Shown here: positions 21,350-58,400 of the stretch, piece after piece
Position numbering within the stretch: the stretch's first letter is position 1
Layout: every line of letters starts with the position of its first letter
Position numbers and translations under genes: made by a program
Source: Patescibacteria group bacterium
GTDB lineage: Bacteria > Omnitrophota > Gorgyraeia > Gygaellales > Profunditerraquicolaceae
Assembly (NCBI GenBank): GCA_035506195.1
Contig: DATJPV010000041.1
Span: forward strand, 112-64,111
DNA: 64,000 nucleotides
Direction: 5' to 3'
The notes under the pieces: generated by a model
The model's input: only the letters and a program-made list of their open reading frames with translations
The model's database searches: none
Told to the model about the DNA's origin: nothing

Positions 21350-21365
21350 CTTTAAAATCCTCCCA

Positions 21366-25755: not shown

Positions 25756-25756
25756 C

Positions 25757-27211
25757 TTACACCGTACCCCTGCGCGCTTCGAGGCTCCTGCGGATCTCTT
25801 CGATCTTTTGTCTTGTCAAGGGTACGCGCAAAACAAAAATGATCGCGACGATCAGGCCCAGGACGGGCAACGAAGCCAGGCTGAAACGGATCCAGAAGAT
25901 GGTCTCGGGTGCCTGCACCTTGAGCTTCCAGGTAAATCCCGCCCAGGTCAGAATAAGGCCGGAAAAATAGTACCCGAAGGAATTCCCCAGCTTAAGAATA
26001 TAGGAAGCGCAGGCAGTAAAAGAACCTTCCCTTCTCTTCCCTGTTTTGAGCTCATCGTAATCGATGATATCGGCGCCGATAGAGCTATGCAGCATCCACA
26101 GAGACGCCGCGGCCATCCCCATTAAACCCGAAGAGATCGTCTGCAGCCAGATAACCGCCGGCGTATACAAGAACCAGGAGCCGGCATAGCCACAGATGCC
26201 TACGATACAGGCCACCACTGCCGCCTCGCGTTTTCCGATCCGGTGCGACAGAGACGCATGCACAGGAACGCCGATAAGGCCGCCGAGCATAAAGGCCACG
26301 CCCATCCAAAACTGCCAGTTATCTCCGATGATCTTGTCGCCGCCGGCTACGTAAAAAACCGTGGCATAGTAACCGAGGGAACCTACCATGCTCGTGCCTA
26401 AGGTAAAAGCGCCGCCCATGACCATCATCTGGCGGAACGGGTGGCAGCGGAGAGTCTCGCCCAGGCCGCTCAAAACGGAGATCTTCTCTTTAACCTTTAC
26501 CACCACTTTTTCGTAGTAACGTTCTTTGACCCTGAAGAAAATGATGACGGCAAAAATAGCCATGACCACGCCCAATATCGCGGTGTAGACCTGCATCCCC
26601 AAAAGGGTATTCTTCTGCCCTGTCCCCGGGATAAGAAACCAGGCCAGGTTGGTAAAACGCAGGGCATAGAAATTGCCCAGCTCAGAGATCTTTTGGGCTA
26701 CGCTGCGATAAGACATGATCGAGGTGCGCTCCTCATAATCGGGAGACATCTCCGCGCCCAAGCTGTAATACGGCACGGTGAAGGCGCTGACTATGGGCAT
26801 ATACACCATGGTGGATAATAACATATACCAGAATACCGCAGAGACCCCGAGGAATTTTATCTCCGCCCAAGAAGGCGATATTAAAAATAGGACCGGCAGA
26901 CACAGCCCGCTGATAATGCCGGCAATCAGAATAAAAGGCCTGCGGCGGCCGTGCCTGGAGCGCAAATTATCGGAAAACCACCCCATTAAGGGATCGGCAA
27001 AGGCATCCCAGACTCGGATCAGGGTAAGCGCCAAACCCACTAGCCAGGGTTGAACCCCCAAGTACAGGTTAAAGACCGCGAACGCAACGGACGGGTATAA
27101 CCAGAGTCCCCACATATCAACGGCCGTACCGAGGCTATAGGCCGCTTTGGTTGAAATCGGAAGACGATCCCGCTGGAGCTTCTTTCCACTAACAACATTA
27201 GCTTCTTGCAT
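25757..27211 (-). CDS. Glycoside-pentoside-hexuronide (GPH):cation symporter family sugar transporter (MFS)
   Basis: The GPH signature D-x-x-x-DP-x-x-G-x-x-SD-x-x-R-S-R-x-G-R-R-R-P is present as VWDAFADPLMGWFSDNLRSRHGRRRP. About 12 TM helices. The start ATG at 27209-27211 follows GGAAGGAG. Confidence 0.85.
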   Translation of the reverse strand: MQEANVVSGKKLQRDRLPISTKAAYSLGTAVDMWGLWLYPSVAFAVFNLYLGVQPWLVGLALTLIRVWDAFADPLMGWFSDNLRSRHGRRRPFILIAGIISGLCLPVLFLISPSWAEIKFLGVSAVFWYMLLSTMVYMPIVSAFTVPYYSLGAEMSPDYEERTSIMSYRSVAQKISELGNFYALRFTNLAWFLIPGTGQKNTLLGMQVYTAILGVVMAIFAVIIFFRVKERYYEKVVVKVKEKISVLSGLGETLRCHPFRQMMVMGGAFTLGTSMVGSLGYYATVFYVAGGDKIIGDNWQFWMGVAFMLGGLIGVPVHASLSHRIGKREAAVVACIVGICGYAGSWFLYTPAVIWLQTISSGLMGMAAASLWMLHSSIGADIIDYDELKTGKRREGSFTACASYILKLGNSFGYYFSGLILTWAGFTWKLKVQAPETIFWIRFSLASLPVLGLIVAIIFVLRVPLTRQKIEEIRRSLEARRGTV

Positions 27212-27279
27212 TGTGCTTTCTCCTTCCGCAGTGGCGGACACCAGCCTATCCGATAAGGCTGGGTGTAACAAATAACAAA

Positions 27280-28221
27280 TTACCGATTATAACAGGCGTC
27301 GATAAGCCGCTCTACGCTCGTAGTGGCCACGCATTGAACCGTATCAGCGCCGCCGTAATACAGTTTGATCTCGCCGTCATCTTCCACCACGGCCCCGCAG
27401 GTAAACACGACGCTGGGGGTCTGTCCTACGAGCTCATATTGCTCCTCGGGAATCAAGATCGCATCTTCGCTCATTGCCTTGACTTTTGACGGGTCGTTTA
27501 GGTCCAGGAGGCAAACGCCTAATTGATACACAAAATGCGCCCGGCATTGCGTACGCACTCCGTGAAAAATGGTCAACCATCCTTCGGGTGTCCTGATGGG
27601 GGTGGCCCCCGGCCCGATCTTTACCCAGGCCCAACGGATTCCCTCCCAGTTCCTGAATACGCATTTACTCTTCCCCCAAAAGACCAGGTCCGGAGAATAG
27701 GAAACCCAAATATCCCCGGTATCGGATCCGGTATTGGGCCGGTCAAGGCGCGCATACAATCCGTTGATCTTTTCCGGGAAAAGCACCCCATTACGGTTAT
27801 CGGTTTCGGAAATGAACCCCATCCATTGGAATTTCTTAAAGTCCTCGGTCTTGACCAGGCTTAAACGGCAGGTATGGCCGGAGTGCGCGGCATGAACAAT
27901 ATAATAGGCGTCGCCTACCTTGGTTACGCGCGGATCGTAGTACATACCGCAGGTATACTCCTTGAACTCCGGATCGTCATGGGGCAAATCTATGGGCTTG
28001 GAGCGCGGCTTAAAGTGGTAACCGTCCGCGCTCTCCGCGATCCAGAAACGGTCAAGCAAAGCGGAATTCTCCACCCGGCAGACCATTGTATAGACGTCGT
28101 TGCATTTCACGATGCCGGAGTTGAATACATTTTTGATATCGGCCTCGGCGGGAAAATCCTTGCCCGTCAGAATGGGATTTTTCTCATACCGCTTGCATAT
28201 GGGGTATTTGTTTGCTTTCAT
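27280..28221 (-). CDS. GH130 family beta-mannoside phosphorylase (for example 4-O-beta-D-mannosyl-D-glucose or beta-1,4-mannooligosaccharide phosphorylase)
   Basis: Five-bladed beta-propeller motifs are present: YEKNPILTG near the N-terminus, VFNSGIV, YYIVHAAHSG, FPEKINGLYARLDRP, KIGPGATPIRTPEGWL. The start ATG at 28219-28221 follows AAGGAGAGGG. Confidence 0.85.
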   Translation of the reverse strand: MKANKYPICKRYEKNPILTGKDFPAEADIKNVFNSGIVKCNDVYTMVCRVENSALLDRFWIAESADGYHFKPRSKPIDLPHDDPEFKEYTCGMYYDPRVTKVGDAYYIVHAAHSGHTCRLSLVKTEDFKKFQWMGFISETDNRNGVLFPEKINGLYARLDRPNTGSDTGDIWVSYSPDLVFWGKSKCVFRNWEGIRWAWVKIGPGATPIRTPEGWLTIFHGVRTQCRAHFVYQLGVCLLDLNDPSKVKAMSEDAILIPEEQYELVGQTPSVVFTCGAVVEDDGEIKLYYGGADTVQCVATTSVERLIDACYNR

Positions 28222-28255
28222 GTCCGATTCCCTCTCCTTGTGTGCGCTGCTGTTG

Positions 28256-29035
28256 TTAAGCAATATCCAACCACTCCGTATTGGCTCTGTTCCATTCTAA
28301 GATCGGATGCCCTCTGCCCTCAAAGTATGCCCGGACTCTTTCCTGGTCGTAGTCTAAGAGGTCCTCAAAAATAGGGACTAATAAAGAAAGGACGTTATCG
28401 GATATGACGCTTCTGCGGCAGATGTGCCCCATATAAGGCGACGGAGAAACGGTTATCGTATAACCATCGTAAGACATGACGTGCAGCATGACATGGACAT
28501 CGCTTGAGCCGTCTCCGATATAGATTATGGCGTTCCGGGGGACATTTTCCTTTTCCTTTAACATATCCAGGGTGGCTACCTTGGCATGGCCGGCATTGGT
28601 CCTTTCCACATCCTGGACGACGTTATCTTTATACATAAATGTGGTGCCGTAGACGTTCTCGACGGGCAGAATCTGCCCTACCGCTTTCTCAACGCACTCC
28701 TTAGGCGCCGCAGAGAGTATATACGTACTGAAACGGTAATTGTCGATCCCCTCGGACAGGATCTTCATCAGGTCGGTAACCCCTTTTTTGAGCTCGACCT
28801 CCTGTCCTACTTCGTAGAGAAGATCCTTGGTTACCTTGCCGGCATAATCGGGGTCCCTGGCTATCAAATGCGCAAGCTCCCCTCCGAGCTGTACGATATT
28901 CCTGCGTTTTATCTCTTCGATCTTTTGGTCGAACTGCTTCGCAGACACTCCCAGCTTTGCGCTTAGTATGTACCCGATATCCCCCACGGAAAGGGTCTTG
29001 TCGAAATCAGAAACAAAGAGAAATTTTTTCTTCAT
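28256..29035 (-). CDS. HAD superfamily hydrolase (phosphatase), subfamily IB-like
   Basis: Motif I is FVSDFDKTL (DxDxT) and motif IV is IYIGDGSSD. A GGAAGGAG Shine-Dalgarno is present. Confidence 0.7.
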   Translation of the reverse strand: MKKKFLFVSDFDKTLSVGDIGYILSAKLGVSAKQFDQKIEEIKRRNIVQLGGELAHLIARDPDYAGKVTKDLLYEVGQEVELKKGVTDLMKILSEGIDNYRFSTYILSAAPKECVEKAVGQILPVENVYGTTFMYKDNVVQDVERTNAGHAKVATLDMLKEKENVPRNAIIYIGDGSSDVHVMLHVMSYDGYTITVSPSPYMGHICRRSVISDNVLSLLVPIFEDLLDYDQERVRAYFEGRGHPILEWNRANTEWLDIA

Positions 29036-29067
29036 CGTAAGCGCACTCCTTCCCCAGGGTATTCGCC

Positions 29068-29874
29068 CTACATTTCATATTTCAAGGCGTAACTTTTTAA
29101 CATCTGTACCGCCTTGGGGATATACACCAGTTCATCCTGTTTGTGCATATCCTGGCCTTCAAACTCCAAAGAAAAGAAACCCCGGTAATCGTGCTTTTTC
29201 AATATCTTGAATATCTTATCGTAATCAAACTCCAATTCACGGCACTCATCGGTTATGTGATGGCACTTGGCATGGATATGCGGGGCATAGGCTATGGTGT
29301 CTTCAATAGCCTTGTAGATATCCGGGTCATGGTAATTGCCGGTGTCCAAGTTGATCTTGACCCACTCGGAGTTTATTTCCTTTATCAGCCTTAAGGTATC
29401 CACCGCGGTCGGCAGGAAGCCTCCCGCATTATGCGGTTCGATTGCCAGAACAATACCGGCTTCTCTTGCCGGGCCTTCGCATTCCTTTATGCATTTGACC
29501 ATTTCCGGCCAGAGCCTGTCTTTATCCTCAGGCGGCTGGGGCCATCCGGAAAATATCCTTAACACCGGCGCACCTAAGATATAACCCACATCCAGCCATT
29601 TCTTAATCGCCTCTACCTCCTGTTTTCTTTCCCCGGAGCCGGCTTTACCGAAATTGTTCCCCGGGGATAAACAGGCGATACTCAAATGCAGGTCGACAGC
29701 CATCTTCTTGTATCCGATCAGGCTTTTTTTGTCGGTCTTGGGCAAGTGATCAGCGATAATATCTACGCCGCCCAACCGGAGGTCGCGAGCGCAGAATGTA
29801 AGCAGCTTAACGAAATCAAGCCTGCCCGATTCTAAGGATTTATGAGCTGACCAGGTACATAGCCCTAACTTCAC
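29068..29874 (-). CDS. Sugar phosphate isomerase/epimerase (xylose isomerase-like TIM barrel)
   Basis: 268 aa. It matches the AP endonuclease 2 / Xyl_isom-like TIM barrel pattern (MKLGLCTWS..., metal-binding E/D/H positions). Confidence 0.75.
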   Translation of the reverse strand: MKLGLCTWSAHKSLESGRLDFVKLLTFCARDLRLGGVDIIADHLPKTDKKSLIGYKKMAVDLHLSIACLSPGNNFGKAGSGERKQEVEAIKKWLDVGYILGAPVLRIFSGWPQPPEDKDRLWPEMVKCIKECEGPAREAGIVLAIEPHNAGGFLPTAVDTLRLIKEINSEWVKINLDTGNYHDPDIYKAIEDTIAYAPHIHAKCHHITDECRELEFDYDKIFKILKKHDYRGFFSLEFEGQDMHKQDELVYIPKAVQMLKSYALKYEM

Positions 29875-29889
29875 GGCAATCCTCCTGCC

Positions 29890-30927
29890 TTACTTGACTT
29901 TTACCCACTTGCCTGTCTTCTGTGACTCATAGCCGGCCAGGATAACCTTGATGGTCTCCCTGCCTTCTTCCCCGCAGATAAACGGTTTTTCCCCGCTTAT
30001 GACGCAATCGATGAAATAGTGCACGGCATTCTCCCAGCCCCCTCCGGGGCCAAGCTCCGGGATCCTCTCTTCCAGGGTACAGTTGGGGTCCTTACCCTTG
30101 CCGGTCTTAGCCAGGGTAACCAAGATCGGCAGTTTTCCGCCGACGCTGGTAGCTATTTTGCCTTTTTCCCCGTAGACGTAGGTGAGCACTTCGTAGGGCC
30201 TTGTGGTCCAGCTGCATTCAAAGAAGCCTTTTGAGCCGTCGGCAAAACGCAGCAGGACGGTGGCGTTATCGTCGATAGGAAGCTTTTTTTCGAGGGTTTG
30301 AATGGTGGCAAAGACTTCGGTAACCTGTTTACCGGAGAACCAGCGCACCAAATCGCAGATATGTACGCCGATATCGATCATCGCACCGCCGCCCGATTTC
30401 TTTTTGTCGTAGAACCAATGCCCTTTACCTTCTGACCAGTACTCCGGGCCGGCGTGGCCGATGCGGCCGCGGATATTGTGGATGCGGCCGAGGATCCCGG
30501 AATCGATGACTTTCTTGGCTGCCTGGTGGATGGGGTCGAAGCGCTGAGTCTGCTCAACCATCAGCAGCACTCCTGTCCTGCGGGCGGCTTTGATCATAGC
30601 ATCGGCAGCCTTGACTGAAATGGTAATCGGCTTCTCGACTAAGACGTGTTTTTTATATGTTGCCGCCCCCACCGTCATCTCCTCATGCAAATAGTTAGGG
30701 GTATCCACAAAAACGGCATCCACATCGCTTCTTTTGACCAACTGTCTCCAATCCGTGGTAATAGCCGCTCCGGGGAGGTTGAATTTTTGCGCCAGATTCT
30801 GCGCCTTGGATTTGTCGATATCGCACAAACAGGTTACCTGGCATTTTTCTTTATCATTAACCAGATTGGGAATGCTGGCCCGTTCTGCTATTTTACCGCA
30901 ACCAATGACACCTACCTTTACCGCCAT
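29890..30927 (-). CDS. Gfo/Idh/MocA family NAD(P)-dependent oxidoreductase
   Basis: It has an N-terminal Rossmann fold (VKVGVIGCGKIAERA) and a C-terminal alpha/beta domain. The motif EKPIT contains the EKP signature. Confidence 0.85.
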   Translation of the reverse strand: MAVKVGVIGCGKIAERASIPNLVNDKEKCQVTCLCDIDKSKAQNLAQKFNLPGAAITTDWRQLVKRSDVDAVFVDTPNYLHEEMTVGAATYKKHVLVEKPITISVKAADAMIKAARRTGVLLMVEQTQRFDPIHQAAKKVIDSGILGRIHNIRGRIGHAGPEYWSEGKGHWFYDKKKSGGGAMIDIGVHICDLVRWFSGKQVTEVFATIQTLEKKLPIDDNATVLLRFADGSKGFFECSWTTRPYEVLTYVYGEKGKIATSVGGKLPILVTLAKTGKGKDPNCTLEERIPELGPGGGWENAVHYFIDCVISGEKPFICGEEGRETIKVILAGYESQKTGKWVKVK

Positions 30928-30945
30928 TGCGTATTCCTCCTTTAC

Positions 30946-31971
30946 CTATAGGTATATCCGTTTGCCGGTCCGGGCGGATTGATAGATGGCCCAGACTGCT
31001 TTTTGCGTTTTGAGCCCTTCCGTACCGTCGATTTCCGGCTGTCGGCCTTGCTGCAGGGCCCGATAAAACTCTTTTATCTGCACACGATGGCAAAAACCCC
31101 AGTAATCCTTGTGATTCTTGCCGTAGCGAATATAGTCCTTAGGATCGGGCTGGGCAGCCACGGCAGTGCCGTTGTAAAGCCTTATGCGGGCGGAGTCTTT
31201 GACTATATGCGCCCTGCCCTTCTGGCAGTCGATTTCGATCTCGGGATCGGCGTCATAAGAATAAAAATTGATCAGATAGAAACAGATATAAGCGCCTTTT
31301 TTAAAATGGATAACGCCTTCGGCCAGATCCTCGACTTCGATGGCGCTATGCAAACGCCGGGCGGTATGCGCCTCCACGTAATCGGGGCGGTCCCGTATCA
31401 GCCAAAGAAGCACATCCACAAAATGGATCGCCTGGTCGATGAGCACCCCGCCGCCCTCCTTGCTCAGCGTACCCTTCCAATCGCTCCTGCTGTAGTAGGC
31501 ATCCGGCTTATGATAGGCAAGGACCAGCCTTGCCGCTTTCACCTTACCCAGGCGGCCGTTGTCTAAATATTTTTTTACCAGCCGTGAGCCGGGGTTGTAT
31601 CTATTCTGGAATACGACGCCCAATGCCACCTTGTTCCTGCGGCTGGCGTCGATCATCTTTTCGGCATCCCGAGGGTCGATAGAGACAGGTTTCTCCGTAA
31701 GCACATTGATCTTTTTCTGCATGGCTTGCATGCTCATGGAGGGATGCAGATAGTGGGGGGTCAGGATATGCACGGCATCCAGCGTTTCGCTTTCCAGCAT
31801 CTGCGCATACTGCGTATACGCACGACACCGGTATTGCCGGGCAGCTCTCCTGGCGCGTTCCGCCTTGATGTCGCAGACCGCGCGTATCTCTATGTTCGGT
31901 ATGTTAATGAGCGACTGTGCGTGTACCGGGAAGATATTGCCGCAGCCGACCAGGCCGACCTTGAATTTCAT
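30946..31971 (-). CDS. Gfo/Idh/MocA family NAD(P)-dependent oxidoreductase (paralog)
   Basis: It has a Rossmann fold (KFKVGLVGCGNIFPVHAQ) and TEKPVS. Confidence 0.85.
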   Translation of the reverse strand: MKFKVGLVGCGNIFPVHAQSLINIPNIEIRAVCDIKAERARRAARQYRCRAYTQYAQMLESETLDAVHILTPHYLHPSMSMQAMQKKINVLTEKPVSIDPRDAEKMIDASRRNKVALGVVFQNRYNPGSRLVKKYLDNGRLGKVKAARLVLAYHKPDAYYSRSDWKGTLSKEGGGVLIDQAIHFVDVLLWLIRDRPDYVEAHTARRLHSAIEVEDLAEGVIHFKKGAYICFYLINFYSYDADPEIEIDCQKGRAHIVKDSARIRLYNGTAVAAQPDPKDYIRYGKNHKDYWGFCHRVQIKEFYRALQQGRQPEIDGTEGLKTQKAVWAIYQSARTGKRIYL

Positions 31972-31972
31972 G

Positions 31973-32827
31973 TTAATGCGCCAACTTCCTTACTGAATTA
32001 CGCGAAATGATCTGGGTATTGTTGAGCAGGACCTTGACCGGCTCCTTTTCTTTCTTATCGATGAGATTCTTGAGGTAGCGCACACCCAGCCTGCCGACTT
32101 CATACAACGGCTGCTTAACGGTAGTCAAGGAAATCAGGCTTGAAGAAGCCAGGGGTATATCGTCAAAACCGACCACGGACAATTCAGACGGCACACCGAT
32201 GCCGCGATGCTTGGCCTCTTCGATCAGGCCGATCGCCATTTCGTCGCCGGCCACAAAGACCGCGGTCGGAACGGGCTTTAACTTCAAGATCCTCTCCAGG
32301 CCCTTCTTGCCGGCATCCTTGGTCCAGTCGCCTTTAAGTATATATTCGTCGATAACGGGGATGCCGTTTTCCTGCAGGCCTTTCTGGTAACCCGCGAGCC
32401 GGTCGATCCCTGCCTGAGCGTGCAGTTTACCGGTGATGGTAGCGATATGCTTATGTCCGATCCTGACCAGATAGTCTATGATTTCGCGCGCAGCCGCTTC
32501 GTTGTCTACCCCAATGCAGTTATCTTCTGATTTCTTATCGAAATAATTCAAAATGATATACGGGATCTTCTTTTCCTTGGCCTTTTCTACCAGCTGTTCG
32601 TTGCCCATGATATCCGCAAACAGCAAGCCCGAGGCAAAAGAAGTGCTGAATATCTTCAGGTCCATATCGGTCTTCTCTCCTTCGGCCTGATGGGCAATGT
32701 GGATCAGGAGATCAACGCCGAGGCTCAGCGCCCCCTTGCTGGCGCCCTGGATGAGCTCCATAGTATAGAACGTCGAGAACATGTGGGGATAATGCGGCAG
32801 CACTAGTCCGAGGGTTACCTTTTTCAT
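31973..32827 (-). CDS. LacI-type periplasmic-binding-fold ligand-binding protein lacking the N-terminal HTH DNA-binding domain
   Basis: It begins directly at the LacI core (MKKVTLGLVLPHYPHMFSTFYTMELIQG...), with no HTH. Its ATG at 32825-32827 overlaps the TGA of the upstream gene (ATGA overlap). Confidence 0.65.
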   Translation of the reverse strand: MKKVTLGLVLPHYPHMFSTFYTMELIQGASKGALSLGVDLLIHIAHQAEGEKTDMDLKIFSTSFASGLLFADIMGNEQLVEKAKEKKIPYIILNYFDKKSEDNCIGVDNEAAAREIIDYLVRIGHKHIATITGKLHAQAGIDRLAGYQKGLQENGIPVIDEYILKGDWTKDAGKKGLERILKLKPVPTAVFVAGDEMAIGLIEEAKHRGIGVPSELSVVGFDDIPLASSSLISLTTVKQPLYEVGRLGVRYLKNLIDKKEKEPVKVLLNNTQIISRNSVRKLAH

Positions 32828-33963
32828 CGTACCTCCTTGACGCGGCACAGGCATCCGCCCAATCCGGAACCGGGCCCCAGAAAGGCGTATTTGCCGTCTT
32901 TAAGACGCTTAAGGTCAAAACCGAGTTTTATGTTTGCAAGCCCCGCAGCAATGCCGTCGTTGACGATATGGAGATGAAAATCAGGGAAGCCGCATCTTGC
33001 TAATTCATTTTCTACGGCGGCAGTAAAATGAAATCCGTCCTTTTTTGTAAAAAAGGGCAGGTAATCCGTCGAACCGAGTAGATAACCGTCAGCGGAGGCC
33101 TCGCCGGGTAAGGCCAGGCCTACGTGCGTGGAATACGCGATACCTATTTTCTCGGCGTGGGCCTTGGCGCGAATGATCAAACCGGCTAGCTGATGGATAA
33201 CCCTTGCGCGCAACTGAAGGCCGAGGCTCTTCTGCTTTGCAAAGCACTTTATCCGGCTGTTGCTTCGGACCGTCCTTACGGAAAACCTATATTTCCAGAG
33301 AAAAGACGTGTTTTTAATTATACCACAGGTCCGGGGATTTACCATTAAAATCCCGACCCCTGTTTTGTCCCTGCCTAGATCGATGCTGATAACGCCGGCT
33401 CGCGAAAGGCCCCTGGCTTTAGTCTGACGGCAAGCAACTTCCAGCACATTGACCGCCGCGCCTAAAAAACCCGATTCTTTACCGGGGAATCGCGCCTTGG
33501 TCACAGCGATATTGCCAAGCCCTTCCTTGGCGAGACGGTCTTTGATGCCCGCAACGACGATGCTGCCGGTTTTCCCCCGGGAAACGCCGCCGCCGATAAT
33601 GACGCAAGAAAGCCCCTTCCAAAGAGCGGACTCTTGCCTTGTCCAGCCAGGCTTATACCCCCGGCCAGCTGCCAAGGCCGCAATGCCGCTTCCGGCACTC
33701 GCGGCTACTTCCTGTACTATCGCAAGGGCGGCTTCCTGCGCCTTCCTGTTGCGCCGGTCCAGAAGCGCCAGGGTCACCGACATACCGGTGATGCCGGCCT
33801 TGCCTTTTTCAATATAACGACCGAAAATTCCCGGCCTTAATCTAGCTTTTTCCTCCAGGACGCGGCCGCAAAATACGTCTTCAAAAATCACGCCGGGATG
33901 CGCAGGGTCGATGCCGCGGACATCCCAGACCTGGCCGTCTCCCAGGACGGTTATTTTTTTCAT
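32824..33963 (-). CDS. ASKHA superfamily (ROK/glucokinase-like) sugar kinase homolog with an atypical N-terminal domain
   Basis: The C-terminal half has ROK-like motifs (ISIDLGRDKTGVGI, VNDGIAAGLA, FLGPGSGLGG). The N-terminal roughly 185 aa are not a canonical ROK N-domain. Confidence 0.45.
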   Translation of the reverse strand: MKKITVLGDGQVWDVRGIDPAHPGVIFEDVFCGRVLEEKARLRPGIFGRYIEKGKAGITGMSVTLALLDRRNRKAQEAALAIVQEVAASAGSGIAALAAGRGYKPGWTRQESALWKGLSCVIIGGGVSRGKTGSIVVAGIKDRLAKEGLGNIAVTKARFPGKESGFLGAAVNVLEVACRQTKARGLSRAGVISIDLGRDKTGVGILMVNPRTCGIIKNTSFLWKYRFSVRTVRSNSRIKCFAKQKSLGLQLRARVIHQLAGLIIRAKAHAEKIGIAYSTHVGLALPGEASADGYLLGSTDYLPFFTKKDGFHFTAAVENELARCGFPDFHLHIVNDGIAAGLANIKLGFDLKRLKDGKYAFLGPGSGLGGCLCRVKEVR

Positions 33964-34426: not shown

Positions 34427-37400
34427 TTACGGGCTTTTCTTCTTCGCAGGCTTAGCCAGCCACACCTTTGTGCCCCGCGAATCGACCCCGTAATGCGCAT
34501 CGGGGTTAAGGCCTCCGTGCCCCGGCACAATAACTACGGTGTAATCCTTAAGGCGGCCGGTGTGCTGCTGATACCATGCAATAATAGTGTTTAGATCGTT
34601 TATTTTCTGCGTAAATGCTTTTTGGCGAAGATTGAACAATCCTTGCAGCGATCCGAATTCGACAAGGAGCGTATCGTAATCCAAAATGCCGGACACCCCG
34701 CCCTCCCACTCTTCGGTGACCACTACCCCTCTTCTGACTATCAGCCTATAGGTTTTTGCTTTTTTCCTGAAGAACACCATCAATCCACCGGAGGTATTAA
34801 GGTGTCCTTCGACGACCACTACGTTCTGGCCCCATTGCTCTTTGACTTGACCGATGAGACTTTCGTGATAACCGTATCCCTTGATATTGCCTTTCGGTTC
34901 ATAAAAATCGTAGCCGTAATACTGCGCAAGCCACTCATAGAGATAGTGGTTGGCGACCGGCTCGGCATAGAACCTTGCCTTTTGTTCTGTGGCGTATGTC
35001 TTGATGCCCTCAAGGATATGCCGGTACCCCTCCGCTGCGGTCTCTTGCGGCGGATTTTGCGCTGCCGGCATGCATAATGCCGTAGCCATAACCACGGTAG
35101 CTATGAATGACACGGGCGAAGAAACTGAACCGGAGGGGCCGCGGACTTCCGCGATATGCGCTTGATCCACCAATGCATCGATGATCTCTTTTACTACCCC
35201 CTTGGCATCAAGCGTACGAATTGTTTCCAGTTTCTGGACAAACACATGAGACCACGGCTTGAACCCTTGCCATACCTCTATGATCCGCTTGCCTTGAGTA
35301 ATAAACTCATGTACCTGGCTATCCGTTAACGAGCCGCCCTCTTCGGGATTTTCAACAATAAGCCGCAGCCGGTTAAATAGATCATCCTCCTCTTCCTTTG
35401 TGGCCAATGCTGCCAGGCTCATCTCGAGCTTGTCCTTGACGTCTTCTCCCATCGGCGAACTGCCGGAGACTGCAAACGAAGGTATCTGTTCAAAAAAACC
35501 TCTCTGCATTGCGTATCTGCCTATGATCTTAAAGGCAAAGTCAAACGAATCTGCGCCAGAATCAAGGTGAGTGTGCCGCAGGGGCGGAATGGCTTTTATT
35601 TTCTCTGTTTCAAGCAGATAGAGTATCCTTACGCCCAGGTCTTCTTCTGCGCGCGTGAAGGGGACGTGCACGATCCTGTCGTATCTGTCGTAGGTATCCG
35701 TATCGATCCATATTTCCTGAATGTCGTCAAGGGACAGGGGAACAATGATCTGCGGGTACGGATCTACTATGCCGGTATATCTATTTCCTACTACCCTTAA
35801 GGTGGCTTTACCTTCATGCAGGAACCGGTTGAAGGTAGCCGTAGAAACGACAAAGATAGCCGGGCTTCTGGAGCGGTCATCAAATTGACCGATCGCATAT
35901 TGATGCACAACCCGGGTCAGGGGGATTTTCCCCGTAAGGTAGTTGTTTAAAATGACTTCGTCTAAACCGTCCCTGCCGTGATAGAGCAGGCCCGGGGCGA
36001 ACTCCAGGGGCTTGTTGCTCATTACCAGCTCCAGTTGTTCGGGCCTGGTGTCGATCCCGTCTTCGGGGTCCAGCAACGCATGATCCTTCATAACCGCCAC
36101 ATCCCCCAGCGGCGAACTGGAATCCGTATCGGAATCCCCGCGTCCTTTAAGCTGCAGAGACATCTGCTCGATCTGCGCGGTTAACAACGCAAGCTTCTCT
36201 TCAATAGGGATGCCTTTGGTAAGGCATTCAAGCGCACCCCGCGCATACAATGATATATGCTCATACCGCACGTCATGATAAAGCGTCGACAGGCGCCTTA
36301 ATTGCGCAATGAAGCTTCTGAGCATTTTTTCAAGAATAAGGACCTCGTTTAACCGTTGCGGCCCCTTGTTTTCCTTCAAGGACGCAAGCTGGCGCTCGAT
36401 CTGCGCTATCCGCTCGGCGGGATCTCCTCCGGAGGCATCTTTCCTTTTCAGCGGCGAGCTGGCGCCGATACGGCTTTCCTTCTTTTTGGCTTCCCCCTTC
36501 CTTTCAAACAAGAGCAATTCGGTCATCGGACAGCCTACCATAGAGAATGCATACAGGAGGGTATCGGGGCTATTATCGGAATCCAATTCATCGTCAACGT
36601 CGATCTGCCTCAAGAGCGCCTGGTAATCCTGCCTAAGGTACTGTTCTATTTCGCCTCTTTTTTTCACGCCTCTTGGTGAGAATAATTTGCTGAACGTATT
36701 TTTTTCATCGTCATTGGTGGGCGTATTGAGCACAACCAAATAACCCGGCCTTGACAAAAACGGGATGCTCATCGATAGCACCTTCCGGAAATCAACGTAA
36801 TTAAGGACATCCGAAAGCGCAATAATATCGAACACTCCCTTATACCGCTGCCAGAACAAGCTTGTATTCCGATGCCGCCCGGAAACGTCAAGAAACCGCT
36901 TAAAGTTACGAGGCAGCCTTAATTGGTCGAGCTTTTCTGCGTCGCCCTTGAGTATAACGAGGTTTCCTTCCTGGCGGATATCTTCGGGAAGGCCGACATC
37001 GACCCCTACTACCCGAGTGCGAGAGCCTGAAAGCTTCAGTTCCGTACTAGCCTCCCCGCCATGACAGCCGATATCCAAGATCAATACGGGGTTACGTTTT
37101 TGCGACAGCCTGAATTGAACGAGGTGTTGCACCAGAACCCTCACTCCCCACTTCCCGCCTGAGTCAGAATAATTCCGCTTCCCGTACAGTTCTTCCCATT
37201 TCCGATGGTTTTGCGCCGGTGAGCTGCTTTTTTGAAAAGCCTCCCGCAAGCCGCGTAACCGTACAAGGCAATTGTTCGCATCCGGGTCCAGCAAGGTATC
37301 ATTCCAGCCGGGCTTCTGACATATCGCCTGAAGTATCGACTCTATAAACAGCTCGATCCTGTCCGGCGGGATCGGATTGCCCCGTGCATAAAGCCGCTGC

Positions 37401-43400: not shown

Positions 43401-46400
43401 AATTCTAGATAGGGGGTTAGGTCATGCGCGAAGGCGCGTGCGAATCTTTCTGCAAGATCTTTAGAAGAGAAGAATACCTCTAGCGCTCTGTGCGGAATGA
43501 GGCGAGCAACAATGAAGCCTACGGGAGGGCCCCGGGCAAGCTCTTTTGAAATGAAGAAAAACTTCGCGCGGATACCGTCGGTTTTGATAATCGCCCCATT
43601 GAAAACCGTAAGCTCGGCGAATGCGCCGTATTCGATGAGCGCTTTGACCTCCCCTTGATACGTAGGATAATAATCGCCCACCCAGGCATAAGGCGATGCA
43701 TGCTGCAGGGGAGAGCTGCTCATCGGCACGCCGCTATTATCGAGATGCCCCTGCGCGGCGTTTTTACGCGCCACCATGCGCCAGCCCAAAAGGACGGCAC
43801 TTTCCTCGTCATAAAATTCAGCCGGCGGGACTTCGAAGTCAAAACCGTGGCGCCAAAAAAGGTCTTCCCACTCAGCGGATGTTTCAAAAAGGCAGGGCAG
43901 ATTCACCAGTTGTATTGAAAGCCCTTTCTTGAAATTATATATCTCCGTGGCCCGTGCCCAGGAATCCAGGGCTTCGGCATTGCTATCCTGATATCCCGCC
44001 TCCGCCATGATCCTGTCGAGCGTATCCAGGATCAGGCTTCCCAGGCCAAATACATCTGTCTGGACATAATCAAGGACCTCCAAGAGACGGTCCTGCTTGA
44101 GGCGCGACGACATGTCCCGCAGATATTCCATGGCACGCTCGAAAATACCCGTCCTGTCAATCTGCTGGATCAGATAAACAAAGTGCCTGGAGCGTTCCAG
44201 GATCGCCGATTCCGGATGATGGGCAACCAGCGCCATCCTACCGTGCGTATGCAAGAGGCGCGCTAACGCTTCCAGCGACCGGTCTGCCCTTGTGTATTCA
44301 AGCGCATATTGCGAGGTAACCACCTCAAACTTTCCGTTACGTCCTTTTAACCGCCTGGCTTCTTCGATAGACCCGCGATGGACAACAATACCGTCTGAGC
44401 CCGGGATGCGCTCAGCCCGGATAGCGGCTTGATCGATGCCGTGTAAAACGAAACGGGAAGATGCCTCCTTGGCAAGCCGTAATAGCCACAGGTTTCCGCA
44501 CCCCACATCAAGGATAGCTGCTTCAGGCATTACGCAAGCCAAATTAAGGAAAAACTGCGTCCAATGCTGCCGGTAAGGAGCCAGCGTCTTGACATCGGTC
44601 ATTGCGGCAATGGCGGTGTCAAATCCCAGGTCCCAGAACATGTCCCAATCGCATCCTTCCGAAAGGCGACTATCGAATCCCTGAATCGAAGAGCTGGACT
44701 GACGTTGCGACCTTATTTCTACGGACCTATCAATTAAGACAGGCGTTCCCTTCCAGCCCGGCAACCGCGTTACTTTTTCAAATGGCTGGCCATCGAGATA
44801 AATCTCAGCTCCTTCTTTGAGTCGTTTCGGATTTGCCGCCTCCGAACCATCAAGGAATTCCTGACGCATATGGGGTTGTACGCGCAGATAACTGTCGATC
44901 TTACCGCCAAGGGTGGTGAAATATCGCTCGAGGCTGTAAAGCTCATTGCCGGTATAGCGTATATGCAGGCGTTTTGCCGTCCGAACTAATCCCAGCATAT
45001 TGGCAGATTGATCTGCGCACATCTGTTCAGTTAATGCCGGGTGTACACTGCGCACGTGCCAGCTGAAATTACTGTCCTCGCCCTGCACGTAGTAGACCAC
45101 GCCCGTAGGATCGAAAAGCATGCGCGGTATTTTTACATTGTCAAATTGACGGTCATGCCGATTAACGAAATGATTGGGAGAGGCCTGTCCTTGGAAGGAA
45201 TCAGCAAGGAGCGCGGCGCGGCCATCAGCCATCAAGGCGCTGCACGGATGCAGTTTTGCCTGAAGATCCCTCCTGAGTTGTGTAGGCAACGTATCCATAA
45301 TGCGTTGCATGGTTGTATTAAATTCATGATCGCCTTCTCCCAAGACAGGTCTACGGATGATTAAATCAATCTTCGTTCCGAAAGTCTTCAGGAACCAGGC
45401 GATATTTTTCACGTACGCCTCAGTGCCGATGCGGCGAGCCCACTTGCTTGCAGTAACCAAAGACAGCCTTACAGGATTGTAATCTTTGCCCATCAAAATC
45501 GGCGCGCCGGCCCAGAAGCGCGGGTCTTGGGCCATCTGGAGAGCCGCACGCGCAGAAGGAGTATGAAGTTCAACGCCCGCGGTAAATACCTGGAAATACC
45601 CTTCGAATAATGAGGCAACATCATAGAAATCCTTATCGTAAACAGGGTCGTAGTAATCCTTCAGCGGGTCGCTATCGAAATAGAGCCACAGGTATTGTAT
45701 CTGGCCGCTGCGGCGTAGTGTATTGACTACCCGGGCGATCTCAACTACCCACGGCCAGGGCATATACCGCACGAGTCCGGCCGCAGCAAGATGACAGATA
45801 TCGCAACGTATGGAACAGCCTTGCGTAACGTTAACCACAAGATGATATACATACTCATCCCTGAACAAGCTCGCTATACGCTTAAGATCGTCTATCCCCT
45901 CAAAATAAGGCCTGAACCAGTCATAGGGAGGATTCCTGAGAGTGCACAAGATTTGTCTTAATGAGGAAGAATCCATGTCGCGTCTTTCCAGCGCTGCCTT
46001 AAAAGCCTGTATATCTGCGGCCCCCTGCTTACTTAAGGGACAAGGGTATTGATCAAACAAAGCCAGATGCCGAGAAATCTCCTTGCGCCAAAAGCTGGCT
46101 GTAACCGGAGAGCTGGTCAACTGTGCAATGAGTTTCTCCGAGCGCCGGTATCCTACGCCGCTCCTATAGAGTTGGCGCAGAATGAGGTAGTACAGCTGCG
46201 GCACAAATGATGGGTGTTCGTTGGCTGCGGTTGCGATACGCTTGAAAAACGCCCGATAGGGATGAGGCGCATAAAACATCTCTGCCTGTTTGGCCTGATG
46301 ACGGCCTAAGGGATCAAAGTGCCACAACCTGCTTAATTGATCCATATCCTTCTGGCCGTTATGCTGCCGGATAAATTCCAATATGTCCAACGGTGCCAGT

Positions 46401-49400
46401 GCCTGGAATACCAACACCTCCCAGAAGAAGGGCCGGCCCGTTGAGAGGAGATTTAAATACAGAATGTTGGCAAGGTTATCCTGCCCGCTTATCACGGTCG
46501 GCAGATCATCGCAATAGAGGAATAACTCATTGAACAGCTTACGGGGAACGGAATAATCCAAAATAATGGTCACGTTATTATCCCGGCAGATGCGCCGGCA
46601 TTGCAGGTCTCCTTTGTCATTCGCATACTCGAAGAAGCTGTAGTCGTGCCCCCGGGAGAGATCCGAGACGGTTCGGTGTACTTCTGTATCGCGACGGCCG
46701 CACATAACAAAGAACGTGGACCTTTGTGTGCGAAAGTCAGGATGCAATGCCCGGGCCTGTTCAAATACGGCAAAGTAATCGCGCACGCTCTGGGCGGTAT
46801 GACAATAGAGAAACCCCCATTCCGAATCAACGACGTGCTGTATATCATTACCCTGATCCAAGAGCTCCCAACCGGGGAACTTTTTAATGATCCTGGCGCG
46901 TGCGACACGGATCTTTTCATCAACCCTGGGATATTTCTGAGAGTACAACTCTTGGCTGACCGGAGAAACAGGGGGCATCCCGATCTCCTCGTCCCCGAAA
47001 CCCAAATATGCTTCGCCGGCTGAGAGTGGATTAAGCGTAGGGCTTTTGAAGCCCAATTCGTAAATATGTACCTGCGCTTTTGCGTTGCCGCCATAAAGCC
47101 TCAGGGCCGTGCAATCAATGTCTTTTTCTTCGGCCCCCAACGCATACACAATTGAAACATCGTTCTGGCCAATGATCTCTTGCTGCGCGCGATACCATGC
47201 CCTGTTTTGCACATCGAACAACACCTCCTCGCTCTTTCCAAAACGTTCCTCGCTGTACAATGCGGTATTGATAACGCGTATACCCTCTGCGCTTTGCATT
47301 GCAGCCTGCGGATTGATACCCTTGAGGAGTTTTGTCTCGGAGACAAGTTGGATATCTTCCGGCGTATGGAAAATTAAGCGTATTTCTTTATCCGGAAATA
47401 AACGGCGCATTGCCTGAGCCGTATTAACGACAAATACAAAATCGCCCAACCCTGCCATCCGATGATGAAGGATAACATTTACCGCAGCAAAGTCATGCGG
47501 CTGCAGTAGCAGATGAGGATAATCTCTGCTTACGGCCCTGATCGCCTCGCTAAGATCCCATCCCATGCGTTTCGTAATGACACGCAGTATATTAGTGAGG
47601 CGGGCGGAATGAAACGGAATGGACAGCTCCAGCCCGTCAGCGCCGATATTCACACCATACGACCGGGAAGGGATAACGGATATCTTACGGAGGGCTGCGA
47701 CGTCTTTGTGGCGCAGGAGAATATTGACTGCGGTAAGGATTTCATAGTAAGGCAGGAGGCGCCGCGCGCCCTGTTCGATATTGCTGGCAAAATCAGCAGA
47801 TACGGGAATCTGGATTACCGGCATCTCCTCAAGCGGCGAGCTGGCGGCATCATCGAGCAGCTGGAGTTCTGCTTCCACTCCGAATTGCCGCTGGAGCTCG
47901 TCTTTGATCGCCTGGGGCGTTTTTCGTTTCGTTTCTGCAGAGACCCTGTACTCCTCATATTCCGTCATATCAATGACTTCTGCCGTATTTTCATCTACCC
48001 TATACCACACGATTCCCCTCCTCGATAGGATGAAATAACGCTGCCCGCAAGAAGACTGCAAATCGGTAAATGACGGTAAGAAATAGGAGAGGATGCCGTG
48101 CCGGTCAGGGTAATGCGTATGCCCGATAAAAACAAAACCGTTGTTAAATGTCTTGAAAGCCGTTTCTTCGTCCTCTATCCGAAGCTTGTATTCAAAAGGA
48201 GCGGACCTGCCTTGAGCGATCGAAATTTCTTTTGTGCACGAAAGCAGAATAGCATGTAAAGATACGCATTGAAAGATGTCAGCTTCAAGCTGAATGATAA
48301 TCTCTTTGCCTTTGTGCGCGTTATATACAAATTGTTTTAAGCGGGATTCGACAGTGGCATCCGCCGGCGAGCTGGCCCAGTCATAGCCAATTTGAGTAAT
48401 GCGAAGAGTTTTATATGGCTTCCATCCTACCGAGACAAAAGCATAGGTCCGCGGTGCCTGCAATGCATAGGTGTCATCACGATAGGTTTCCCACCCCCCC
48501 CATGTGGATAGTTTCTTGTGTTCCAATTCCAATACGTATCCGTTCTCATCGACGAGCACCGAGGCTTCCAGGCGCCTATCGTCAGAATCGCACTCAGTAA
48601 CAACCAAGACGTGGAAAGAAACAGAAGCGCTGACGAGGGCCACGTTAAAGCGCAATGTAACCGTTGAGGCATTAAAGCCGCGGAATGGCGCCAGCCTGAA
48701 TCCTCTGGGGGTTTTGTTGATATGCAATAAGTGCCGCGCGTGATCCCGCCTTACCATTTCCTTTATGTACTCCTCCGACGAACCTAAGTGTATCTGGCTG
48801 CCAGCGGTCTCGTCCGTGAATAGATGGAAAGGCGGAGACGCCAGGCGAGAACCCCCTTCTTCGGCGCGGCCATTCGACAACGGCGAGCTAGACTCTTGCG
48901 GCACAGCCCAGGCTATTGCTACCAATTCCGAAGGCACTGTTATAAAACCAAAAGCATTCAAGCCTCCGAAGCGCCCCGATATAACATCAGGCTGCTTAAA
49001 TCCGCCATGCTCAAAATAGTGCCTGACCAGATCAATGCGTTCCTGGAAAGAACTATCTTTCCAGATACGGGTTGTTTTGAGAAGATAGCTGTGCTCGCTG
49101 AAAACTACTACAAAGACGCCTTGCGGCTGAAGGAGCCGGTTGGCCTCCTTGAACACATCGAACGGGTACTTGAGGTATGCGATACCGGAGACCATCACGA
49201 CGGCACCAAAGCTATTGTCGTAGAAAGGTAAGTGCGGCGATACATTAACATCATGGACTATCCGACTGGTAAGCCGCGAGTTCGCGCGCATCTCTTCCTT
49301 GCTTACGCCCAGGCCGACTACCGCCGAGACTCGCGGCTTTCTAGGCACATACGAATGGTACCCCGACATTAAATCAAGGACGCGGCTGGCGGGAGGCACC

Positions 49401-55400: not shown

Positions 55401-58400
55401 TCGATACCGATACCGTCGGGGCTGATAACGATATCCGCCGGATGCGCAGGGTAATCGTTTCTTTCCAGGGGTGTGGCGAGCAGTTGGCGGGCTATGTCGA
55501 CGGCTATGCCGCTGGCTATCGCGCGTTCAAAACGGCTTTTATAGCTACTGTTGAAACGCACGAGTAATTCAGGCTGGCCTTTCTCCTGATCAGCATACTC
55601 AAACAGCTTAGTAACGCATTCAATGAATAGCACATGCGCTTCCGGCGCCTCGTTGTGTGCCCATTCAGCAAGAGACCTTGTGTCCACGCGCATAGAACGT
55701 AACCCGTGATCCTGCAGCGCCTTACTCGCCAGATTAATGAGCATTGTCTTGGCTGTTGCGGTCGGCCCAATAAAGACGATATGCGCCGGCCGGCCGAGTT
55801 GGCGCTGCTCATTGGCAGTAGCTATGCGCACGATCATGGAGGCGAGTTTCTCTATGCCGCTTTCCTGTACGGGCGAGCTGGTTTTACCGCGCTGCCACCC
55901 CGAGAAGGGAGAACGGACCAGGCGGGGGAAACGCGCTATAACCAGACGGCTGCCGAGCTTCGTATCTGGCTGTTGGGTTTCGGAATTATCTATCTTGAGG
56001 GGAGCATATATCTCATCGGCGATTTGGCGCACCCGATCGTTGACGCTATCGGTCACCAGGATCCCGGCATTCTTCAGCGCCTCGATATAGAATCCGATGA
56101 ACCTAGCCCTCACCAGATGGAGATACTCAAATAACACAACCTGAACCATTGTCTTTTTTGAGCCGGAGTCAGAAAGCAAAGATACCGCCTCCTGAAGCAT
56201 GGCGATGCGCGCTTCCCGCAGATAATTGCTCGCCTGCATATGGAATGCGTGACGGGAAAAATCCTTTCCGTCAAAACGATCTGCCTTCGCAAGTGCCTCC
56301 AGATTAAGTTCATCCAGAGACATGCATATGTTTTGGAATTGCGATGCCAAAACAGGAACAAGCACAAAGGCGCGTTCGAAAGCACGGCGAGCCGGCCTTC
56401 TTAAGAGCGCCTCTATTGCCTTTGCGGGTTGAGGATAGGTATATCGCGTATCCGCGTCAGCGCGCTGATGAGCAACAGCAGGACGAATACCTTGCCGGCG
56501 AAAACTTATTTCTTCGAGTTCATGGAATACGAGCGGATCAAGATGGCGGCGGAGCGCGGATGAGAATTCTTCCTGGAAGCTTTCAACGAGGGTCTTTGAA
56601 GAGAAGTATAACGATAGGGTGCCGTTTGTTTTCCGAGCCCAGATGAATGTTGGCGGAGCGCGTGCGGTATTCTGCGTAAGATAAAAGAATCCGACCTTGA
56701 CATCGCCAAAACTTGGAACCGCCCGGTTGAAGGCAGGGACGGCTTCATAACAACCCTTGGCAATGAGTTGTTTTATCTCCTTGATATCCTGTCGGTTCAG
56801 GTTCCCGAGATAGCCATGCCCTTGAGAAACGGGGCTGGCAGCCCTCATGGGGCCTACTCCGTCCCGCGAAGGCTGCTTGACCCGGACCACAAAACGCTCA
56901 ATTAATCTATCGCTCAATAAACGCATGGGATCATTTGAAATATACGAAGGCAACGCAAAATCTCCGCCGCCATCTTGATCAATCGGAGATCTGCCTAATG
57001 CGTCTTGACGCCTTTCGAAAAAACGCGGCAAGCCGTAATGGGTCGGGACAAACTCTGCCGGGTGGAGATAGACATGTGCATCCTTAAACTTTGAGCACAC
57101 GTTACCGTAACTGCCTACGATACCGAAGTGCGTCATCTTCCCGGAAGCATCAAAATACACCACAAGAGAACCTGGCTGTGCTTTTTCTTGCGAGACAACC
57201 TGGAATGACATTGATAATATATCAAGCAGTTGCTGGTAGCCCAATCCGTTGAGCTCAGGGAAGAATTGTTTCACGTACCCCAGACAATCCATGCATGAGG
57301 GCAGGTCCTTGGTATCTTCAATAAGCATTATTCCCGGCAACACCGCAATGCTGTCGAAATCATGCTGTTCCAAGAGCCAATCGATGCATTCACGGATCTC
57401 TTCAACCGTATCGAATAGCGGAGAGCTTGTCCCCGGAAGGCGGCGTACGGTATAGATAAGCGTACCTTTGTTAATATCGTCGGCCTGTTCGCTGAAATTT
57501 CCTACGGCAGTATAACTCAGGCGCTTGCCTAACGAAGAAATATGGAAAATGCCACGGTCATTGTACACAGCCGCATTACGCGAATACGGCAATCCTATTC
57601 CTCCCCAGAAACGTGCGATTCCTTTCCTTGTTGAATATCCTTTGGTCATTGCCTTGCGCAGATCCTTAATACCCTTGCCTAGATCGCGCACCAATATCTC
57701 AAGGAACCCTGCATCGGCAGAAAGCACCACCGCGCCGGGCGCACCGGCATGCACTACGATATTAGTAGCAAGTTCATCAACTATAAAACGGATCGACTCG
57801 TCACCAGAAACAAGCTCATCCTCCCTGTCGTTTACGATTGATTCCTGCGCAAAGCCCAACGATGCGGCAAATGCCTTGATGTGCCGTCCGTATACGCTTT
57901 CCGGGGCAAATTCGTATTGATCGCTGCCTACCGGCAAAAGCAGGAATCCGCCGGAGGCAAACGGCGTGAATCCCTCCCTGCCTGTACGCGCAAGCAACGA
58001 ATCCACCTTCCTGACCACGTGCCCTTCTAGCTCGGGATACTCTGGAAGCGGAGAGCTGGAATACTGTTGAGACGCATTAAACAGCAAAACAATATTCTCT
58101 CCTTCTTTGAATTTTGTGACTCGCAGGCTAAACCGCGTATCCGGCGGATATGCCTGTCCGATACTTTCAACGAGGAAATCCTGCATAAGTGCAGTGGATT
58201 CCCCACGGCCAAGCGCGGTATCCAAAATGACCTCATATTTCATGTCTGGGCCGGGTTTATCCGCCAGTTCATACGGACGCAAGGGAACGTCGTATTGGAG
58301 GCGTGTAAGGTTGCCCCGGCGGATCAACCCTTCGATCCATACATAGAGTTCCTGGAAAGACAAACCGGTGATATCGAAATACCTATCGCCCCTGGCCGGG

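Follow-up and report, generated by a model that had tools for sequence, protein, structure and literature searches.

A giant open reading frame (ORF) lies on the minus strand of the 64,000-nucleotide window analyzed here (positions 112 to 64,111 of contig DATJPV010000041.1, GenBank assembly GCA_035506195.1, from a Patescibacteria group bacterium that GTDB places in the Omnitrophota). It spans nt 34427-64000, ends at nt 34427, is open at the right window edge and encodes at least 9,857 aa. Our subject is a segment of 793 codons without a stop (nt 43727-46105, giant aa 5966-6758), which an earlier note, made from the letters of the window, had described as a single radical S-adenosylmethionine (SAM) plus methyltransferase module and as the largest segment of the ORF. 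Our analysis favors, with a probability of about 0.6, two adjacent, evolutionarily independent modules within a giant multi-enzyme protein of mosaic build: the first, of about 470 aa (giant aa 5966-6434, nt 44699-46105), is a divergent radical SAM domain, and the second, of about 320 aa (giant aa 6440-6758, nt 43727-44683), a generic class I SAM-dependent methyltransferase. All features of the segment given below are on the minus strand.

The cysteine motif and its domain family

The motif GCSIRCDIC is encoded at nt 45794-45820, close to where the earlier note had placed it (about 45790-45815). Its CX3CX2C core (CSIRCDIC, nt 45794-45817) supplies segment residues C97, C101 and C104, the presumed [4Fe-4S] ligands. 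The giant protein is poor in cysteine (80 residues, 0.8%), and CSIRCDIC is both the sole CX3CX2C and the sole tight three-Cys cluster in its 9,857 residues, while any CX3CX2C appeared in 0.35% of 2,000 residue shuffles. The remaining cysteines of the segment (aa 22, 54, 288, 363, 485, 524, 536 and 738) are scattered, and the additional Cys clusters for which the earlier note had recommended a check were not found. Comparison with an 83%-identical metagenomic fragment (P0001/L001) gave a dN/dS of 0.16 over 336 codons around the motif, indicating that these codons are under purifying selection. Taken together, the uniqueness of the motif, its rarity in shuffles and the low dN/dS indicate that it is more than a chance occurrence.

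A word-indexed homologue search returned only one 337-aa fragment. We then searched 1.84 billion representative proteins exhaustively with HMMER and identified 46 homologues of the Cys-motif domain (E<1e-3), of which 44 retain CX3CX2C, with the consensus C-S-x-Q-C-D-[HYF]-C. Motifs found across the family include the N-terminal helix region Y-x-A-P-L-S-x-x-G, MPWPW, DPLRDYYDPxYDKDxxDV, T-S-G-F-E and G-S-x-G-E-R-A. Four residues are invariant (C97, C104, D153, G295) and ten more are at least 90% conserved (G96, C101, P116, D146, D150, Y151, D162, G177, A187, Y231); the window copy retains every one of them.

The confidently folded part of the module covers segment aa 1-403 (nt 44897-46105), and no fold was assigned to the tail at aa 404-469. 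An N-terminal three-helix subdomain (aa 1-60, nt 45926-46105, pLDDT >90) carries the family-conserved Y-x-[AC]-P-L-S-x-x-G. It is followed by a predicted (beta/alpha)6 partial-barrel core (aa 85-290, nt 45236-45853), supported by the AlphaFold2 model, Foldseek and hhalign, with core strands predicted at aa 89-91, 139-140, 173-175, 212-216, 246-251 and 285-287. Behind the Cys loop stands MPWPW with the conserved P116 (nt 45749-45763), and after beta2 the acidic motif DSDPLKDYYDPVYDKD (nt 45629-45676), which holds the invariant D153 and apparently takes the place of the GGE SAM-binding motif. FTAGVE (nt 45569-45586; family consensus TSGFE) aligns with the TTNG of MoaA at beta3, and the model closes with a C-terminal three-stranded sheet and helices (aa 325-400, nt 44906-45133).

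The homologues were mostly found in giant proteins of Omnitrophota or Planctomycetia metagenome-assembled genomes (MAGs), with Saganbacteria and Desulfobacteraceae as further MAG sources. Most of the carrier proteins come from Ca. Omnitrophota MAGs, and NCBI names them 'ATP-binding', 'hypothetical', 'HEAT repeat' and the like, never 'radical SAM'. The domain also occurs as a stand-alone protein, of 355 aa in a Saganbacteria MAG and of 546 aa in one from Omnitrophota. Their neighborhoods were uninformative, with NAD kinase, TlyA-like FtsJ and DapF genes near the former (L003) and PhoH/PIN near the latter (L011).

Only a distant sub-clade of the family (P0018, P0022, P0025, P0027-P0031 and P0036, mostly CSTQCDHC) has an extra C-terminal CX2CX3-4CX5-9C about 240-270 aa past CX3CX2C, which may bind an auxiliary cluster or zinc. 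The Omnitrophota giants P0030 (aa ~1410-1560, 51.8 bits) and P0038 (aa ~675-815, 31.9 bits) combine the divergent domain with a canonical PF04055 domain that exceeds the cut-off, and giant proteins thus contain at least two kinds of radical SAM module.

Probable membership of the radical SAM superfamily

Profile comparisons, a predicted fold and structure searches all placed the domain near radical SAM enzymes. When 30 family members were scanned singly, 16 matched PF04055 at E<0.1, the best of them at 1.2e-5, and none of the other Pfam families recurred; the matches of P0005 and P0012 cover 112-128 of the 166 profile positions. Weak NCBIfam matches of the family were nearly all to radical SAM families, of many kinds. 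A search of PDB sequences with the family profile ranked the radical SAM epimerase YydG first, with the Cys loop, alpha1 and beta2 aligned. Using hhalign, we compared the family profile with E. coli MoaA as a single sequence; the alignment extends through beta1-beta4 in 128 columns (E 6.3e-5, probability 64%), pairing the Cys motifs with each other, YYDPxYDKDFxDV with GGEPSLRRDFTDI, and TSGF with TTNG. The unrelated controls BioF and YbhK gave E-values of 0.3 and 0.13, respectively. Against E. coli BioB and AslB the Cys loop alone was aligned, so that MoaA was the only one of the three matched through beta4.

An AlphaFold model from the single sequence was unusable (pLDDT 38), while AlphaFold2 with a 30-sequence alignment reached a pLDDT of 84.7 and a pTM of 0.87. 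In the resulting architecture, three N-terminal helices precede six alternating beta/alpha units, and a small sheet with helices forms the C-terminal part. Its top Foldseek matches in the PDB were SkfB (E 5.5e-4, probability 0.99), DesII, OxsB, RimO, MtaB, NifB and BtrN, all of which are radical SAM enzymes. An alternating beta/alpha partial barrel whose best structural matches are radical SAM enzymes is thus predicted around CX3CX2C, as the proposal in the earlier note called for, and we consider membership of the superfamily to be likely.

We also examined whether the motif might be a chance CX3CX2C in a fold unrelated to radical SAM. The PF04055 match of the window copy by itself is insignificant (E 0.05), and phmmer with the single domain against PDB sequences found nothing relevant, both as a chance motif would have it. 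Such a motif would, however, have a shuffle probability of about 0.0035 and would hardly be kept in 44 of 46 homologues, and profile, hhalign and fold all point to radical SAM enzymes, leaving this explanation with almost no weight.

The subfamily of the domain was narrowed by exclusion. We found no SPASM/twitch auxiliary Cys cluster (e.g. CX2CX5CX3C) in the segment and no Pfam or NCBIfam match to the B12-binding domain PF02310 at E-values up to 1, the N-terminal part being predicted as three helices, and the window sequence matched none of the curated NCBIfam subfamilies. The Pfam, NCBIfam and Cys scans therefore ruled out SPASM/twitch enzymes and B12-binding enzymes, the two types that the earlier note had suggested looking for, as well as all curated NCBIfam radical SAM subfamilies.

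Putative chemistry of the domain

If the domain acts as its superfamily does, C97, C101 and C104 would bind a [4Fe-4S] cluster, and SAM would be bound at the unique iron of that cluster, with the invariant Asp-Pro motif in the role of the usual GGE. Reductive cleavage of SAM would then yield a 5'-deoxyadenosyl radical, which would abstract hydrogen from the substrate. This radical step would proceed without an auxiliary cluster and without a cobalamin domain. A crude hydropathy scan found no strongly hydrophobic stretch across giant aa 5134-7638, which would place the two modules, together with the HTH_17 and receiver modules downstream (giant aa 7498-7546 and 7569-7683), on one side of the membrane. 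The scan hints at a cytoplasmic location for both, where SAM and reductant would be available.

Several observations weigh against this picture of a working radical SAM enzyme. The window copy scores 14.2 bits on PF04055, below the Pfam gathering cut-off of 29.5 bits, and no family member reaches that value (the best reported relatives score 24.1 and 22.6 bits). The Foldseek TM-scores are low (0.24-0.32). There is no GGE; SDPL and YYDP stand in its place, and the equivalent position was placed in two ways, with HMMER putting D146 on the YydG Glu and hhalign instead putting D153-P154 on the MoaA E-P. The residue before the third Cys is Ile in the window clade; an aromatic residue or His is found there in the majority of relatives and in canonical enzymes. 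Among the homologues, the second Cys was lost in P0019 (CSVQWDYC) and P0014 reads CX4CX2C, suggesting that some copies may be inactive. The topology call, finally, has the crude hydropathy scan as its sole basis.

With the exception of the TM-scores and the topology call, these same points favor a domain that is derived from radical SAM enzymes and still binds an Fe-S cluster or a metal, but performs no radical chemistry and has a structural, redox-sensing or SAM-binding regulatory role. The abundance of regulatory modules (receivers, HTH, HATPase) in the giant protein would suit such a role. However, the family sequences are overall only 17-30% identical, yet their three Cys and acidic motif hardly vary, as expected under constraint on an active site. 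The alignment also covers all of the beta1-beta4 elements with which MoaA holds SAM, and purifying selection is evident. We regard a loss of radical chemistry as unlikely for these reasons and retain the reading of a divergent radical SAM domain. The name given in the earlier note stands at the level of the superfamily, by profile, hhalign and fold; it does not extend to a named subfamily, as the family stays below the Pfam cut-off and forms an uncurated, divergent clade.

The earlier note had further taken the domain as a sign of an anaerobic host. Aerobes, too, have working radical SAM enzymes, among them BioB, LipA, MiaB and MoaA, and an anaerobic host is therefore not implied.

The methyltransferase and the junction between the two modules

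The second module begins after the intervening codons at nt 44684-44698 and carries motif I, ILDVGCGN, at nt 44492-44515, in the same frame as the Cys motif and downstream of it, just as the earlier note had reported. Segment aa ~481-793 matches five class I methyltransferase families, with the Pfam core at aa 529-633 (nt 44207-44521). Methyltransf_11 (PF08241) scored 24.0 bits against a cut-off of 21.2, and the four sister families gave E-values of about 5e-5 to 6e-4. The only detectable relatives of the module are stand-alone proteins of 315-344 aa, labeled UbiE-like by JGI, which are 24-30% identical over the full alignment and collinear with the module end to end. Motifs common to the module and these relatives are W-x(n)-W, ILDVGxGN, HGIDQAAI, QYALEYT, GGR and a C-terminal GF...LLGW. 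A profile of this alignment matched B. subtilis YcgJ (1xxl) in the PDB at 2.3e-11, followed by 25 other chains, nearly all of them class I methyltransferases. The earlier assignment is confirmed by the above-threshold Methyltransf_11 match and the YcgJ match, and the second half of the segment is, as judged by its alignments, a complete, generic class I methyltransferase (UbiE/YcgJ-like). The neighborhood of one relative, P0047, gave no clue to a substrate.

The ends of the segment agree with the limits given in the earlier note and are set by in-frame Ser-Ser-Pro (SSP) tripeptides. The upstream delimiter (AGC TCT CCG, giant aa 5963-5965) is at nt 46106-46114, with the modelled fold beginning 1-2 residues past it, and the downstream delimiter (AGC TCT CCC, giant aa 6762-6764) is at nt 43709-43717. 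Between the two modules, nt 44684-44698 read TCC AGC TCT TCG ATT (SSSSI), which is two transitions away from the canonical TCC AGC TCT CCG GTT (SSSPV). These codons are a decayed delimiter and mark the place where an SSP once stood. The segment reads as one, and as the largest, because the delimiter between the ~470-aa and ~320-aa modules has decayed. The earlier description of a single largest segment is thus borne out for the uninterrupted 793 codons and not for their unity.

The earlier note had further suggested a product that modifies some complex substrate, such as a glycoconjugate or a peptide, and in this view the two domains would be a functional two-step unit acting in sequence on the same substrate. 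The two are indeed adjacent in one polypeptide with no intact SSP between them, both use SAM, and if SSP were a processing site its decay would keep them physically linked. The homologues speak against such a unit. Phmmer found no match to the methyltransferase half in any of the 46 homologue-bearing proteins, and Pfam found no methyltransferase adjoining the domain in nine complete homologue proteins, where the neighbors were a dual-specificity phosphatase, HATPase_c, HTH domains or nothing. One of these nine is the closest homologue, P0002 (57% identical; a 2,737-aa gene on a JGI contig), in which a delimiter follows directly after the domain. P0002 and the window protein have one further module in common, which lies on the opposite side of the radical-SAM-like domain. 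When 20-kb flanks of giant ORFs in MAGs of Omnitrophota and Planctomycetia were compared, little more than the radical-SAM-like domain was shared. The methyltransferase relatives are in turn stand-alone genes without a radical SAM neighbor, the codons at nt 44684-44698 betray a former delimiter, and module order is shuffled among relatives (see below). With four methyltransferase-like domains in 9,857 aa, moreover, finding one within 400 aa downstream of any given point is not unlikely. We consider a two-step unit very doubtful, and the comparisons indicate that the two modules are adjacent by position and do not form a conserved pair.

Ser-Ser-Pro punctuation of the giant ORF

A total of 32 in-frame SSP were observed in the giant ORF, against 1.8 +/- 1.25 in shuffles (maximum 6), with the logo [AS]-S-S-P-[VAL]-[EQ]-E. 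The sites always lie between the Pfam domains found and never within one. The pieces they bound are domain-sized, such as a receiver (153 aa), a methyltransferase (255 aa), a HATPase_c (210 aa) and a GT-B glycosyltransferase (443 aa).

Codon usage at the sites is highly uniform. The first Ser is AGY at 31 of the 32 sites, the second is TCN at 31 (TCG at 20), the Pro is CCG at 29, and the preceding codon ends in C at 26. The corresponding nonamer AGYTCNCCG occurs 34 times in the window (4.6 expected). Inside the giant ORF, it was found 30 times on the coding strand, 28 of these in frame, and not once on the opposite strand. A strand-independent DNA site is disfavored, since within the ORF the nonamer is confined to the coding strand and is nearly always in frame.

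Several relatives that carry the radical-SAM-like domain are also enriched in SSP with the same codon classes, namely P0002/L015 (11 vs 0.6 expected), P0003 (10 vs 0.8), P0022 (15 vs 0.8), P0029 (21 vs 1.7) and ORFs of Planctomycetia MAGs (L006, 17 vs 1.3; L012, 23 vs 1.4). Other domain-bearing giants lack SSP, and of these P0038 carries ten copies of RRSPSG and P0028 six of ASPL. An SSP stands 93-103 aa before the Cys motif in P0001, P0002, P0003, P0016 and P0021, and the next one follows 258-306 aa after it in P0002, P0016, P0018, P0022, P0029 and P0043. The whole domain segment measures 420 aa in L012, and longer segments occur in P0003 (~735 aa) and L006 (~688 aa). From this spacing, the radical-SAM-like domain usually appears to form a segment of its own in delimiter-bearing relatives.

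Candidate roles for SSP are protein processing, N-capping of a helix (S-P-x-E) and a pause in translation; it might also be a scar left by the insertion of modules. The furthest-reaching interpretation would make the giant ORF a bacterial polyprotein, with [AS]-S-S-P-[VAL] as the processing sites or module-junction signals for enzymes of stand-alone size. SSSSI would then have created a new bifunctional protein of ~790 aa, and the radical-SAM-like family would be a previously unrecognized clade specialized for giant proteins. We offer this combination tentatively and think it improbable as a whole. If it were true, SSP would supply the cleavage points of giant proteins, which West-Roberts et al. 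described as unknown (10.1101/2023.11.21.568195). SSP punctuation is not mentioned in either giant-protein preprint (10.1101/2023.11.21.568195; 10.64898/2026.06.07.730766), and a literature search found no paper tying the giant-protein phyla to the term 'polyprotein'.

Domain content and genomic setting of the giant ORF

The part of the giant ORF within the window contains Pfam matches to GT4/GT1, adenylate kinase, HATPase_c, HTH_17, GNAT and two receiver domains, in addition to the four class I methyltransferase-like domains. Pfam showed neither HEAT, dockerin nor SecA domains in this part, nor any peptidase domain (including C39 and S8). Self-BLAST of the giant protein found no internal repeats, so its modules are not recent duplicates.

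Several modules without Pfam hits are common to other giants. Giant aa 5209-5381 (nt 47858-48376) resembles P0002 aa 1694-1864 at 55% identity, aa 2381-2535 (nt 56396-56860) was also found in P0008/L002, and aa 9332-9586 (nt 35243-36007) in P0038 aa 1727-2022. The order of these three modules differs between proteins, indicating that modules have been shuffled among lineages.

Downstream of the giant gene, a cluster for sugar-polymer catabolism occupies nt 14229-32854, mostly on the minus strand. It includes a GH94 (14229-16577), two copies of GH113 (16613-19021 and 19634-21349), a PGM/PMM protein of 936 aa (21508-24318), a PfkB-like gene on the plus strand (24469-25755), an MFS_2 (25757-27271) and a GH130 (27280-28263). 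Also in the cluster are a HAD gene, a xylose-isomerase-like TIM barrel, two GFO/IDH/MocA genes and a LacI-type sugar-binding domain without an HTH hit (31973-32854).

A PilZ and ROK-family fusion protein is encoded at nt 11613-13055 (minus strand), and a PilZ gene was also observed in L015 (12896-13561), two genes downstream of the P0002 gene. The PilZ genes of the window and of L015 may indicate a c-di-GMP link. Further genes of the window include a ribonucleotide reductase with a C-terminal TSCPD domain (5587-7887, minus strand), which we take to be probably a B12-dependent class II enzyme, and MnmG/GidA (3655-5538, minus strand), both of them housekeeping genes. Three ORFs of 371-428 aa had no Pfam hit at E<=1e-5 (32824-33963, minus; 9091-10377, minus; 10480-11595, plus), one of which is directly downstream of the giant gene. 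Neither the Rfam nor the tRNA scan gave a hit in the window.

Significance and comparison with known systems

Giant multi-enzyme proteins of Omnitrophota and other PVC bacteria have already been reported, and much of their sequence is unannotated. We found that one such unannotated stretch belongs to a distinct radical-SAM-type clade that recurs in giants of several phyla, and defined it as a module of ~470 aa. With this clade, radical chemistry probably joins the repertoire of giant proteins. Neither the superfamily nor its occurrence in giant multi-enzyme proteins is new; the novelty is an uncurated, distinctive clade. The modules correspond to entire stand-alone enzymes, and a conserved Ser-Ser-Pro marks their bounds. 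Published work leaves open whether giant proteins act whole or are cut, and the SSP makes this question testable. We regard the punctuation as a more novel lead than the radical SAM module itself.

Compared with the radical SAM superfamily (PF04055), the domain shares CX3CX2C in a loop after beta1, an alternating beta/alpha partial barrel and T-[SA]-G at the place of TNG; an acidic residue followed by Pro may correspond to GGEP(L). Its nearest relatives are MoaA by profile, SkfB, DesII, OxsB and RimO by fold, and YydG and PoyD by sequence near the Cys loop. The window family differs in having DPLRDYYDPxYDKD in place of GGE and an extra N-terminal three-helix subdomain with YxAPLSxxG. Unlike SPASM/twitch enzymes and MoaA, the window copy has neither a SPASM/twitch cluster nor a second MoaA-type cluster.

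The giant ORF as a whole resembles the Archaeovorins and the 'multi-enzyme metabolic clusters' of Omnitrophota, being a very long ORF tiled with the same Pfam families, and most homologues of the window domain were found in Omnitrophota MAG proteins. PF04055 domains are reported in ~90 giant Omnitrophota proteins (10.64898/2026.06.07.730766) and Radical_SAM is among the top 20 Archaeovorin domains (West-Roberts et al. 2023, 10.1101/2023.11.21.568195), contrary to the view in the earlier note that radical SAM enzymes are usually small dedicated proteins. GT1, methyltransferase, HATPase_c, GNAT and receiver Pfams together with PF04055 also belong to the two largest co-occurrence modules in Omnitrophota proteins of at least 10,000 aa (10.64898/2026.06.07.730766). 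Archaeovorins have full lengths above 30,000 aa with HEAT, SecA and C39/S8 regions. None of these domains was seen in the 9,857 aa available from the window ORF, which runs off the window edge. A further difference is that the radical-SAM-like domain of the window is missed by threshold-based Pfam annotation.

The methyltransferase is close to the class I methyltransferases (Methyltransf_11/25), with which it shares ILDVGCGN, an acidic beta2 end (HGIDQ), QYALEYT, GGR and a stand-alone length. It differs from them in lying inside a giant polypeptide, in missing the third Gly of GxGxG and in having a helical C-terminal extension.

Elp3 is a natural fusion of a radical SAM domain with a GNAT transferase, and its structures were among the weak fold matches of the module (Foldseek ranks 14 and 16). 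The likeness lies in a radical SAM domain followed by a second transferase domain in one chain. To our knowledge, the Elp3 fusion is universally conserved and both of its domains act on one substrate, whereas the window protein alone has the present pairing, which follows the decay of a delimiter.

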